A stretch of 64,000 nt of DNA from Candidatus Woesearchaeota archaeon (lineage in GTDB: Archaea; Nanobdellota; Nanobdellia; Woesearchaeales; GW2011-AR4). Within the stretch, counting starts at the first letter, position 1. Each line of letters starts with the position of its first letter. Below, piece by piece: positions 4,274 through 62,664 of this stretch. The stretch is from NCBI GenBank assembly GCA_016180235.1, contig JACPBQ010000002.1:2206-66205 (forward strand). Reading direction: 5' to 3'. The translations under genes were made by a program, and so were the position numbers. Under the pieces are notes generated by a model. That model saw only the letters and a list, made by a program, of their open reading frames with translations, had not been told where the DNA came from and did no database searches.

Positions 4274-4341
4274 CTTGCATAAAGTTACTACAAACTGATA
4301 ATTATTTTTCTCATTAAAACAACAATTTTCCATATCTTTGT

Positions 4342-4392
4342 CTCGGGATGCCGCAGGCATCCCAATACGCTAGTGTGCAGGCATGCACAAAA
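4342..4392 (+). promoter_or_regulatory. two-hairpin structured motif, copy 1 of 3
   Basis: GGGATGCC-gca-GGCATCCC, linker AATACGCTAG, TGTGCA-ggca-TGCACA. Differs from the copy at 43401-43449 at 2 linker positions over about 51 nt. Same architecture as 38138-38186. Confidence 0.7.
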
Positions 4393-38083: not shown

Positions 38084-38137
38084 ACATTTAAAAAAGGCCA
38101 ATATTCTCTATCAAAATAAAAAAATCGTAAACTGCGT

Positions 38138-38186
38138 TTCGGGATATCGTAGATATCCCTAGACGCTGTTTTACGGGCACGTAAAA
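38138..38186 (+). promoter_or_regulatory. two-hairpin structured motif, copy 2 of 3 (abuts ileS ATG)
   Basis: GGGATATC-gta-GATATCCC, linker TAGACGCTG, TTTTACG-ggca-CGTAAAA, immediately followed by the ATG at 38187. Confidence 0.7.
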
Positions 38187-41100
38187 ATGGAAAAATATGA
38201 TCCTCTGAATCAGGAACCGGAAATATTGAAGTTCTGGAAAGACAATAAGCTGCATGAAAAAGCCAATCAGAAGAATGCAAAAGGCAAAAAGTTCTATTTC
38301 TGCGACGGGCCCCCATACACTTCCGGCAAGGTGCATCTTGGCACTGCATGGAACAAATCCCTGAAAGATTCCATTATCCGCTATAAGAGAATGCAGGGAT
38401 TTAACGTCCTGGACAGGGCAGGATACGACATGCATGGCCTGCCGACAGAGAATGCAGCAGAAAAAGAGCTCAAGATAAAAAACAAAGATGAAATCATGAA
38501 ATTTGGGGTTGACAAGTTCACAAAAGCCTGCAAGGACTTAAGCATAAGTAACCTTAAGATAATGAACCAGGACTTCATGCGCTTGGGCGTGTGGATGGAT
38601 TTTGAAAATGCATACCAGTCCGTGAGCAAAGAGTACATTGATGGCGAGTGGTGGCTTGTAAGGAAGGCGCACGATGCCAAAAGGCTTTATGAAGGCCTAA
38701 GGAGCATGGCATGGGACTGGAAAGACCAGACAGCCTTGGCAAAGCATGAGCTGGAATATAAGGATGTGAAAGACAAGTCAATTTTTGTAAAGATGCAGGT
38801 AAAAGGCAAAGAAAATGAGTTCCTGATAATCTGGACAACTACGCCATGGACAATAGCATTTAATCTGGGGATTATGGCTCATCCTGATTTTGAGTATGTA
38901 AAATGCAGAGTTGGAAGGGAATTCTGGATTGTCGCAAAGTCCCTTGCCTCTGTTTTCATTTCCGGAGTCGCTGGAAAAAAATTTGAGATAGTGGAGGAAT
39001 TCAGGGGCAGGGAGCTTGAAGGCATTGAATACGTTCATCCTTTTTTTAATGAGCTGAAGGAGCATTATGAAAGATTGAAGTCAAAGCACCCAAAAGTGCA
39101 TGCGGTTGTTTTAAGCGAGGAATATGTTGATACCAGCTCTGGCACAGGCTTGGTGCATATGGCCCCTGGCTGCGGTCCGGAAGATTATGAAGTTGGCCAC
39201 AGGAACAATATCCCGCCCTGGAATCTTGTCGAGGAAGATGGTGTTTATGGAAAAGCTATGGGAAAGTTTGCAGGAAGGCACGCAATAAAGGACAATTATT
39301 CTTTTGTAGAGGATTTGAAGGGAAAAAATGCAGTTGTGGGGGAAACAGAAGTTGAGCACTCCTATCCTCATGGCCAGAGGAGCCACCAGCCCGTCATATT
39401 CAGGACGACAAAGCAGTGGTTCTTTAAGGTCGAAGATATCAAGCAGGATATGATAAGGGAGAATAACGAGATAAAATGGGTTCCGACAGCAGGGTATAAT
39501 GCATTTAATTCCTGGCTGGAAAACTTAAGGGACAATTCAATTTCAAAGCAAAGGTATTGGGGCACTCCTGTTCCCATCTGGAGGAATATTGAGGATGAGG
39601 ATGATTATATTGTTATCGGCTCTATCCAAGAGCTGGAAGAATTATCGGGAAAAAAAGTCGATGAGCCGCATATACCCTGGATAGACAAGATTCTGATAGA
39701 AAAAAAAGGCAGGAAATACAAAAGGGTCCCGGATATCCTGGATGTTTGGGTAGATGCAGGCACAGCCTCATGGAATTCATTGAATTTCCCGCAAAACAAA
39801 GAAAACATGAAAAGGTATTTTCCCGCTGACTTCATTCTTGAGGGCAAGGACCAGATACGCGGATGGTTTAACCTGCTGCACGTCGCTTCAATGATTGCTT
39901 TAGGCAAAAAAAGCTTTGATGCTGCCTACATGCACGGTTTCATCAATGATGCGATGGGCAGGAAGATGTCCAAGAGCCTTGGAAATTATATTCTGCCTGA
40001 AGAAGTCATAGCAAAATACGGCGCTGACACCCTGAGGTATTACATGATTACCGGGGCAAATGCCGGGCTGGACCTGAACTATAATTTTGATGACATGAAG
40101 GTGAAGTACAGGAACCTTACAGTTTTGTGGAATATCCATAATTACATCATTGATTTGGCGAGGAACTCCGGCTTAAACCCAAAGGAAATTAAAATCAAAG
40201 CCGATGATATATCCATCGAGGAAAAATACATATTTTCAAAGCTCAACTCTGCAATAAGGAAAACAACAAAGCTGTATGACGGGTACAAGCTAAATGAGGC
40301 CCCTTTAATTGCTGAAGAATTGTTTTTGGCATTGAGCAGAATATATATCCAGATTACAAGGGAAAAATCAACGGACGAAAAAGCAAGGCAGGCAGTGTTA
40401 TATGCCATATACTATGTTTTTATGGGAATTTTGAAGCTGTTTGCCCCTGCCTCCCCTTTCATAACAGAAGCAATGTACCAGAATCTGAAGAAGGAATTTT
40501 CCCTGGAAGAGGAAAGCGTGCATCTTCTTGGCTGGCCGAAATGCATTGAGAAACTGATTAACAAAGGGTTAGAAGATGAGATGGACTCAATAAGCGAGGT
40601 TACCCAGTCGATATTGTCATTAAGGGAAAAGATAAGCATGGGCCAAAGATGGCCATTGCAGGAAGCCATTGTAGTTACAAAAGATGAGAAGACAATAAAA
40701 GCCGTTGAAAAGCTGAAAAGCATAATAAAAAGGCAGACCAATATAAAAGAGATAGAAATACAGCAGTCATTGCCAGGAATTAAAACAACAATAAAAGCGG
40801 ATTATTCGCAGCTGGGCCCGGATTTCGGAAAGAAGGCCCCGGAGATAATTGCAAAATTGATGGCAGAAAGCCCGGAAACTATCCTTAAGCATATAGAAAA
40901 AGACGGCAAATTCCCGTTAAAGATAGGCAAAGAAACTGTCAATATAGTCAAAGAGCATTTAATCGTGACAAGGAAAGTCCCTGAGCCGTATGTCGAAGGC
41001 TCGTTTAAATCCGGATTTGTTTATTTAAACAAGGACGTTGATGATGAGCTGGAAGCTGAGGGATTTGCCCGCGAACTTATGCGCCGCGTCCAGGCCCTGA

Positions 41101-43397: not shown

Positions 43398-43449
43398 GTT
43401 TCGGGATGCCGCAGGCATCCCCAGACGCTAGTGTGCAGGCATGCACAAA
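43398..43449 (+). promoter_or_regulatory. two-hairpin structured motif, copy 3 of 3 (pyrB-pyrI spacer, abuts pyrI ATG)
   Basis: GGGATGCC-gca-GGCATCCC, linker CAGACGCTAG, TGTGCA-ggca-TGCACA, then aa and the ATG at 43450. Confidence 0.7.
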
Positions 43450-43902
43450 ATGAAAAAGGAAGTAAGCATATCGGCAATAAAGGAAGGGACTGTTATAGAC
43501 CATATTCCAAGCAATGTGACATTAAAGGTAGCTGAAATACTCAATCTTGATGATGTTGCAGGAATAATATCAATAGCCACTAACCTTCCAAGCAAGAAAA
43601 TGGCCAAGAAAGGCATAGTGAAAATAGGAGACAAGCTATTAACGCAGGATGAAGTCAATAAAATAGCAGTCATAGCCCCTGATGCCACGGTTAATATAAT
43701 AGAAAATTATAATGTAAAAAGAAAACTAAAAGTTTTATTGCCAGATATAATAGAAAAAATAGTCAAGTGCTCAAATCCAAACTGCATAACAAACAATGAA
43801 AAGGCAGAAACAAGGTTTTATGTTCTCAATAAGACTCCTTTGAAATTAAAGTGCCATTATTGCGAAAGGGCAATGAATAAGGAAGATATAGTGCTTTTGT
43901 AA
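43450..43902 (+). CDS. pyrI: aspartate carbamoyltransferase regulatory subunit
   Basis: MKKEVSISAIKEGTVIDHIP plus the zinc domain CSNPNCIT..CHYCE. The in-frame ATG at 43441 lies inside hairpin 2 of the motif. Confidence 0.9.
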   Translation: MKKEVSISAIKEGTVIDHIPSNVTLKVAEILNLDDVAGIISIATNLPSKKMAKKGIVKIGDKLLTQDEVNKIAVIAPDATVNIIENYNVKRKLKVLLPDIIEKIVKCSNPNCITNNEKAETRFYVLNKTPLKLKCHYCERAMNKEDIVLL

Positions 43903-48809: not shown

Positions 48810-48953
48810 GGGCCCGTGGTCTAATCCGGCATGACGTTTCCTTCGCAGGGAAAAGACTCCGGGATGCTCGAAATTAGTTTTTCGGCACGGAAATTCAAAT
48901 ATCCCAGAGGGAGACTGCAAATCCATTGGGTTTTGAGAGTCCCGGCGGGTCCA
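48810..48953 (+). tRNA. tRNA-Ala(CGC) with two insertions flanking the T-loop
   Basis: GGGCCCG/CGGGTCC acceptor with G3:U70 (alanine identity pair). D-arm GTC-TAATCCGGCAT-GAC. Anticodon arm TTTCC-TTCGCAG-GGAAA. T-stem CCGGG(48859-63)/CCCGG(48941-45). TTCAAAT at 48894-48900. Insertions of 30 and 40 nt, and 74+70=144 nt. Confidence 0.75.
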
Positions 48954-62383: not shown

Positions 62384-62468
62384 AGAGATGATTACATGCT
62401 ATTTTTTATAGTTATATAAATATTATGGTTTTGTGATTAAAGAAAAATTTAGGATGGAAAAAATTAAA

Positions 62469-62664
62469 TGGGCCCGAAGGGACTTTCACCAACTGCGAAC
62501 ATAGAGGGGCTGAGCGAGCGTTGCGAGCAGCGAAATGGTGAGCGAGTTTCTTGCGAACCTCGCATCTCACTGCCGCTCGAACGTGCCAGCTGAGTTCTCA
62601 GCTGTGTTGAACCCTTGACCTCCGCCGTGTCGAGGCGACGTCATAGCCACTAGACCACGGGCCC
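62469..62664 (-). tRNA. tRNA-Val(GAC) with a 123-nt GC-rich insertion in the T-loop
   Basis: Minus strand: GGGCCCG..CGGGCCC-A acceptor. D-arm GTC-TAGTGGCTAT-GAC. Anticodon arm TCGCC-TCGACAC-GGCGG (anticodon complement of 62629-62631, C rather than U at position 33). T-stem AAGGG/CCCTT separated by 130 nt that begin with TTCAA. Confidence 0.65.

Follow-up and report, generated by a model that had tools for sequence, protein, structure and literature searches.

Can a tRNA gene whose T loop is interrupted by 123 nt, and whose anticodon loop carries C at position 33, still supply a tRNA, and where does such an insertion come from? These questions are raised by a locus on the minus strand of the window, by which we mean the whole 64,000-nt stretch of DNA analysed here. 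Genomes are denoted below by G and a number (G000 is this genome), genera by g and contigs by C.

The split tRNA-Val(GAC) gene and its junction

The gene occupies window positions 62469–62664 on the minus strand, with an unspliced length of 196 nt. Its exons read GGGCCCG-UG-GUCU...GAC-G-UCGCC-UCGACAC-GGCGG-AGGUC-AAGGG-UUCAAC, followed by 123 nt and then by U-CCCUU-CGGGCCC-A, and CCA is not encoded at the 3' end. This reading of exons and insert agrees with that of an earlier note made from the sequence alone, as do the length of the insertion and its GC-rich composition. When positions 62483–62605 are excised in silico, ARAGORN calls the 73-nt product tRNA-Val(GAC), with a canonical cloverleaf and the T loop UUCAACU. 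The canonical spliced form supports the view of the earlier note that an insertion of the bulge-helix-bulge type splits this tRNA in its T loop.

The same program calls no tRNA in the 196-nt unspliced precursor and none in the whole window. At the gathering score, Rfam gives no match for the window or the gene, and the gene searched alone yields a sub-threshold partial tRNA match only. BLAST with the mature sequence gives no further Val(GAC) gene in the assembly. Because the assembly is 81% complete, it may lack another copy of this gene or another endonuclease subunit. With a probability of about 0.8, we regard 62469–62664 as a working tRNA-Val(GAC) gene, the sole copy found in the 81%-complete assembly, for which splicing is the best explanation.

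The earlier note placed the insertion in the T loop, which holds, and set its ends between TTCAA and AGT, which does not. Because that split leaves an 8-nt T loop, and a cut after C59 and before U60 gives 7 nt, we place the intron between positions 59 and 60. The features of the locus are collected in Table 1.

Table 1. Features of the tRNA-Val(GAC) locus, with positions in the window
Feature	Position	Strand	Remarks
TATA-like box TTTTTATATAAA	62688–62699	-	Centred about 29 nt upstream of tRNA position 1; direct reading; putative promoter element
5' exon, tRNA positions 1–59	62606–62664	-	59 nt: acceptor, D arm, anticodon arm, variable loop, T-stem 5' strand, UUCAAC; ends AAGGG-TTCAAC; ARAGORN on the spliced form; identical to the exons of G001
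C at tRNA position 33	62632	-	Loop U32-C33-G34-A35-C36-A37-C38
Central 4-bp helix, 5' strand U54-U55-C56-A57	62608–62611	-	Pairs with 62485–62488; R57 covaries with its partner
5' bulge A58-C59 / A	62605–62607	-	Probable cut after C59, from the 7-nt T-loop need and bulge-helix-bulge symmetry; G 62489 opposite
Intron between tRNA positions 59 and 60	62483–62605	-	123 nt, 57% G+C; both ends homologous to the 83-nt 59/60 introns of G083 tRNA-Val(GAC) and tRNA-Ala(GGC)
Palindrome CAGCTGAGAACTCAGCTG, first 'A-family' module	62587–62604	-	5' strand of the intron-closing helix comes from its first 6 nt; recurs in G083, G007, G032 and others
Conserved repeat core GCAGTGAGATGCGAGGTTCGCAAGAAACTCGCTCACCATTTCGCTGC...	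62521–62573	-	GNRA-capped, with a lower stem of its own; one copy in this genome
Intron-closing helix h', 3' strand CAGUUG	62490–62495	-	Pairs with 62599–62604
Central 4-bp helix, 3' strand UGAA	62485–62488	-	Minimum-energy fold and pair probabilities
3' bulge A-G / U60	62482–62484	-	Unpaired in the minimum-energy fold; probable cut before U60
3' exon	62469–62482	-	U60, T-stem 3' strand CCCUU, acceptor 3' strand CGGGCCC, discriminator A; direct reading and spliced product
T-rich trailer TTTAATTTTTTCCAT	62454–62468	-	Follows discriminator A; direct reading; likely transcription stop

The minimum-energy fold of the precursor reaches −87.5 kcal/mol, which corresponds to z = −4.25 relative to shuffled sequences. 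In this fold, the acceptor and T stems are retained, U54–A57 pair with UGAA, the three nucleotides A-G-U60 bulge out, and CAGCUG/CAGUUG closes the intron. In the ensemble fold, the T-stem pairs have probabilities of 0.93–0.99 for four pairs and 0.48 for A49-U65, the intron-closing helix has 0.92–0.999, and the central helix UUCA/UGAA shows a moderate pair probability of 0.37–0.68. Of an hBHBh' motif, the junction shows the 3' bulge AGU, the 4-bp UUCA/UGAA helix and the helix on either side. The 5' bulge ACA is not strictly canonical: its three nucleotides face one G (62489), giving either a 3×1 loop or, as in the minimum-energy fold, a C59-G pair.

The junction drawn in the earlier note, from the T stem through AGU, UUCA/UGAA and ACA to CAGCTG/CAGTTG, is retained with one correction, namely the G opposite the 5' bulge. 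On the other hand, the 'perfect hairpin' CAGCTGAG..CTCAGCTG described there is predicted to be unformed (p about 0.001), because its 5' arm is taken up by the intron-closing helix. The insertion appears to be a non-canonical bulge-helix-bulge tRNA intron, a known kind.

At least eight other 59/60 introns of this genome have a matching junction geometry. We tabulated the T-loop introns of this genome found by our own stem-pairing scans, and they share the layout T stem / TTCR / NNN / helix ... helix / N / YGRR / A(G/A/T)T / T stem. In every tabulated 59/60 intron, an extra nucleotide lies opposite the 5' bulge, and R57 covaries with its partner across the 59/60 introns of this genome (A-U, G-C and G-U). 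Since the same layout recurs and R57 covaries, the junction geometry appears to be the house style of the 59/60 introns of this genome and no chance fold. Meanwhile, the tRNA-Phe, tRNA-Ala and tRNA-Ser genes of the window hold an element of about 40 nt at 59/60, which bears out the earlier statement that all four tRNA genes of the window are split at one T-loop site.

Splicing enzymes and interrupted tRNA genes of this genome

This genome encodes a single splicing endonuclease, EndA, of 192 aa with the domains PF02778 and PF01974, and RtcB is encoded at C1:63531-64847. The EndA motifs expected to hold the catalytic Tyr, His and Lys residues are present as read by eye. Among proteins of solved structure, it is closest to the catalytic subunit of N. 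equitans and to the alpha4 enzyme of M. jannaschii. Residues 27–192 align with the M. jannaschii alpha4 enzyme with zero indels, and the 6-residue insert found in the N. equitans enzyme before the catalytic His is absent. A tblastn search of this genome with EndA gave nothing convincing as a second EndA paralogue or beta subunit. Among 41 genomes of the order (40 relatives and this one), 35 have one PF01974 match and none has two.

We notice that the EndA gene (G000:C9, around 285899-286474; L018 74-1788) is divergent from an RNase Z-like gene, assigned by eye. Because the two genes adjoin divergently, EndA and RNase Z may share one intergenic region.

The alpha4-type EndAs were classically considered to need strict motifs. 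Here, a plain alpha-type EndA apparently has to process many 59/60 introns with a 5' bulge that is not strictly canonical. In DPANN lineages, alpha4-type EndAs have been associated with more disrupted tRNA genes, and incomplete tRNA sets have been noted (Kaneta et al. 2018, PMC5829648). Position 59/60 is listed among the known non-canonical tRNA intron positions (PMC4090602).

On the basis of the fold and the enzymes encoded, we propose the following course of splicing. The transcript of the Val(GAC) gene would contain the 123-nt intron, which lies in the T loop between nucleotides 59 and 60. U54–A57 of this precursor would pair with UGAA at the 3' end of the intron, and the intron ends would pair as CAGCUG/CAGUUG. 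The T stem and these helices would then build a bulge-helix-bulge-like motif with a canonical 3-nt 3' bulge, AG/U, and a 5' bulge, AC/A, opposite one G. The lone alpha-type EndA would cut both bulges, and RtcB would join the exons into the 73-nt tRNA with the T loop UUCAACU. Excision and the exact cut sites in this scheme are those which the sequence predicts.

ARAGORN finds only 6 tRNA genes in the whole 1.04-Mb, nine-contig genome. Simple stem-pairing scans add more than 20 genes interrupted at the D loop, the anticodon region, 53/54 and 59/60. Because only 6 intron-free or canonical tRNA genes are detectable, most tRNAs must come from interrupted genes. Interrupted genes such as Val(GAC) explain the seemingly 'missing' tRNAs to which Kaneta et al. 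2018 drew attention in DPANN genomes (PMC5829648).

Several of these genes and other repeats of the genome deserve a description. In tRNA-Ala(CGC), at window positions 48810–48953 (+), introns on both sides isolate the 7-nt T loop, the one at 53/54 having about 30 nt and the one at 59/60 being the 40-nt element. Three further tRNA genes (C4:17846-18048, C4:14751-14940 and C9:221104-221324) hold 59/60 introns of 83–93 nt that belong to another family, with ATGCAATG in common, then a variable hairpin and then GGAACGAT. The window also contains three copies of a 53-nt two-hairpin repeat (GTYTCGGGATGCCGCAGGCATCCC...), at 4340–4392, 38136–38188 and 43398–43450.

Val(GAC) orthologues and position 33

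Comparison of the Val(GAC) orthologues revealed that the exons persist and the introns change. This genome (genus g1) has the 123-nt intron at 59/60. In G001 of the same genus, the gene has the same flanks and identical exons, with a T-loop element of about 40 nt at 59/60 and further introns at 37/38 and about 44/45. The mature exons of the two genomes are identical at 73 of 73 positions despite complete intron turnover. At the same site, G021 (g12) has an unrelated intron of about 100 nt and G016 (g11) has one of about 49 nt; G005 (g5) and G007 (g7) have no intron in Val(GAC). Within the family, the 59/60 site of Val(GAC) has thus been occupied by at least four unrelated introns.

The orthologue of G083 (g12) has an 83-nt intron, both ends of which are in common with the intron of this genome: ACAGCTGNGAANTCAGCTGGCA matches at the 5' end, and ...GTTCGCA...TGAAAG matches at the 3' end. 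A copy of the G083 intron also interrupts the tRNA-Ala(GGC) of G083 at 59/60, with 76 of 83 nt identical to its counterpart in Val(GAC). One intron type thus occupies two different tRNAs, Val(GAC) and Ala(GGC). Highly similar introns in tRNAs of different identity, the mark by which transposed tRNA introns are recognised, are therefore found in this pair.

The C at position 33, pointed out in the earlier note for the loop UCGACAC, is real and recurs across the order. Every Val(GAC) orthologue read has it, with or without introns (G001, G021, G016, G007, G005 and G083). The C33 pattern TGAYRYCRCCTCGACA occurs in 54 of the 201 genomes of the order, spanning 47 of its 170 genera, and the U33 twin pattern occurs in 3 of the 201. 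A reversed control pattern had zero matches in the order-level searches, and a looser C33 pattern had none in 132 genomes from other orders of the class. About 15 anticodon loops are readable in this genome, and C33 is present in that of Val(GAC) only; tRNA-Pro(GGG), for one, has U33 here. Because it is conserved across the order, C33 is no sequencing error, and on these counts it appears to be a fixed trait of tRNA-Val(GAC) in this order.

The U33 rule is general for tRNAs (PMC5041475). An archaeal exception with C33 is known from Sulfolobales, in tRNA-Cys(GCA), where a G27-U43 pair has been noted as well (PMC7668247). The two cases are alike in a clade-wide C33 in an archaeal elongator tRNA, in G34 and in a wobble pair at 27-43, which is G27-U43 there and U27-G43 here. 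They differ in that the tRNA here is Val(GAC) and the clade is one DPANN order. We also notice that G34 accompanies C33 in both Sulfolobales Cys(GCA) (PMC7668247) and Val(GAC). In this order, the combination of C33 and G34 may reflect a rule of decoding or modification that is as yet undescribed. Very few elongator tRNAs depart from the U33 rule, and the C33 seen across this order is one such case.

The dispersed repeat within the intron

BLAST with the intron matched 28 of the 70 genomes of the family and gave as many as 11 matches in a single genome, mostly over intron positions 33–85, which form a conserved hairpin core of about 50 nt. We collected 33 distinct copies of the core and aligned 32 of them. 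The aligned copies have GTGA-N-AT-GCGAGG ... CTCGC-TCACCA in common, and the core is about 80–95% identical between genomes. Its apex varies in length and is capped by GNRA loops (UUC-GCGA/GCAA-GAA) or UUCG-type loops. For 22 of the 32 copies, no open frame of at least 90 aa spans the copy.

The lower stem of the core is specific to each copy. Because the length of the 3' loop varies among copies, column-wise covariation of the lower stem was unusable, and the duplex energies of own and swapped flanks were compared instead. The flanks of the same copy pair at −10.9 kcal/mol, as against −7.2 kcal/mol for swapped flanks (Mann-Whitney p = 3e-7).

The remaining copies include some that lie in introns of other tRNAs. 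The core is in sense orientation in the D-loop intron of a tRNA-Arg(CCU) and in an intron near the anticodon of a tRNA-His(GUG), and in antisense orientation in the T-loop introns of a tRNA-Pro(CGG) and a tRNA-Val(UAC). ARAGORN accepts all four of these tRNAs after in-silico splicing, the Val(UAC) gene being cut by a contig end and its last three bases supplied by hand. One further long tRNA holds an antisense copy of the core.

In several genomes, the core is itself nested in a second element. This 83-nt 'A-family' element has 13 copies in G007 and single matches in G076, G048, G055, G054 and G074, of which the G074 copy sits in a tRNA-Pro(UGG) intron. A long form, in which the core lies in the loop of the second hairpin of the element, is present in G048:C40, in G049:C31, in G065:C8 and in the tRNA-His intron of G055. 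The 123-nt intron of this genome corresponds exactly to this long form. A caveat to nested insertion is that a deletion, rather than an insertion, could account for the difference between the long form and the short, 83-nt one. Taken as a whole, the sequence is multi-copy, is found both between genes and in introns, and occurs in both orientations, which characterises a repeat. As judged from these alignments, the intron appears to be the long form of a dispersed, structured 'A-family' repeat and no dedicated RNA gene. Because copies of either orientation are found in intergenic DNA as well as in introns of other tRNAs, the core and the element most likely spread at the DNA level; in tRNA genes, they are probably tolerated because a cleavable motif can arise from their hairpin ends.

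Three other identities of the core were considered and dropped. The core has one copy here and a free-standing one in G001, which suggested a single-copy conserved small RNA gene, and it is multi-copy in other genomes. A K-turn was rejected by eye on the alignment, since the partner strand lacks a tandem G-A. As a strict bulge-helix-bulge site, the core has a 3-nt bulge N-A-U, a 4-bp GUGA/UCAC helix and an opposite bulge in order, but the second 'bulge' is 6–9 nt long. This is a resemblance only, since GUGA can pair instead with a second downstream UCAC.

Genes for Y1 transposases are present in 6 of 12 genomes, this one and 5 of 11 relatives. At the seven loci examined, no copy of the core lies within about 1 kb of these genes, and the Y1 transposase was dropped as the mobiliser of the repeat, its genes being present and not flanked by it. 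In this genome, the gene is of the IS200/IS605 type (155 aa, G000:C9:194521-194868, minus strand), likewise with no repeat core within about 1 kb. A separate observation concerns G032:C80:5360-5990 (L017), where three direct copies of a tRNA 3' end (TGCGTCGGCC, + strand) lie beside an intact tRNA. The CAGCTG palindrome module adjoins one of the copies. From their arrangement, these copies look like serial integrations at a tRNA gene.

Could the intron instead hold a functional small RNA, a guide or a stable circular RNA released by splicing, as in archaeal tRNA-Trp introns? The similarity of the core between genomes, the stable GNRA/UUCG caps that its variable apex keeps and the lower stem formed by each copy would fit such an RNA. 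The whole gene also folds better than shuffles, and excised archaeal tRNA introns are known to circularise (PMC12558985). The earlier note had suggested a C/D or H/ACA guide and a comparison with Rfam. That comparison, run on the window, the gene alone and five related loci, gave no match to the intron or to the free-standing core even at permissive thresholds. There is no C box (RUGAUGA) and one CUGA only; no segment varies as a guide would, and the internal loops are conserved among copies. The core is multi-copy, is antisense in two to three tRNA introns, and is absent from the Val(GAC) introns of the sister species G001 and of G083. A repeat that is multi-copy in two orientations, with no boxes, leaves the guide suggestion unsupported, and we consider a functional small RNA in this intron unlikely.

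The same repeat could have inactivated the gene. That the insert is a copy of a dispersed repeat, that its 5' bulge is imperfect and that another copy could exist in the incomplete genome would agree with an unspliced tRNA-Val pseudogene. Against this stand the lack of any other Val(GAC) gene found and the 73/73 identity of the exons with G001 after complete intron turnover. Moreover, the junction keeps the cleavable layout of the other 59/60 introns, which interrupt many different tRNAs here, and with only 6 intron-free or canonical tRNAs detectable, interrupted genes must supply most. A pseudogene is thus very improbable. Still less credible is an assembly or sequencing artefact behind the 123-nt insertion or C33. 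Repeats can cause misassembly, but the core is single-copy in this genome, which leaves no repeat-driven join, and the insertion sits in the middle of a 217-kb contig. A homologous intron occupies the same site of the same gene in G083, and C33 is found in 54 independent genomes of the order.

Several known systems resemble this one in part. Non-canonical bulge-helix-bulge introns at 59/60 occur in Thermoproteales, Nanoarchaeota and ARMAN, in the account of Sugahara 2008 given within the review PMC4090602. The intron here is like archaeal 59/60 introns in its position, in the exon-intron pairing that builds the motif, in the cloverleaf restored by removal, in being missed by standard finders, and in the pair EndA and RtcB. 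It is unlike them in its DPANN host of Woesearchaeota type with a single alpha-type EndA without visible inserts, in the extra nucleotide facing the 5' bulge, in its length of 123 nt and in its dispersed repeat modules. Euryarchaeota tRNA-Trp introns with a C/D-box sRNA are likewise long and structured. In contrast, they lie at the canonical 37/38 position, and the 59/60 intron here has no C/D boxes or guide segments.

Transposed tRNA introns (Fujishima 2010, as relayed in passages of PMC4033280 and PMC4090602) offer a second comparison. As described in those passages, they share with the present case near-identical introns in different tRNAs, here the G083 pair with 76/83 nt, and the same element at different intron positions. 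The sequences here differ in that they also lie outside tRNA genes, in both orientations and nested; for Thermoproteales introns, we found no such report in these passages. Bacterial REP/BIME/REPIN sequences are also short, G+C-rich, hairpin-forming, multi-copy, mostly intergenic and present in both orientations, with Y1 (HUH) transposase genes in the genome. The repeat here is unlike them in that it flanks none of the Y1 genes examined, has copy-specific lower stems, lies inside tRNA introns and is archaeal. Two traits set this gene apart from routine examples of such introns, namely an intron that stems from the long form of a nested hairpin repeat with dispersed copies, and the order-wide C33.

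We propose, tentatively and at a little under even odds, that the hairpin repeats dispersed in Woesearchaeota provide the raw material for tRNA introns. A mobile nested element would land in tRNA loops and elsewhere, and would persist where its ends and the T-loop bases make a motif that EndA can cleave. Gain of tRNA introns would thereby be linked to a dispersed DNA repeat that lives outside tRNA genes as well. If true, this would explain the fast intron turnover at one site, 59/60 of Val(GAC), and would supply archaeal 'intron transposition' with a concrete mechanism, one that reviews describe as unknown.
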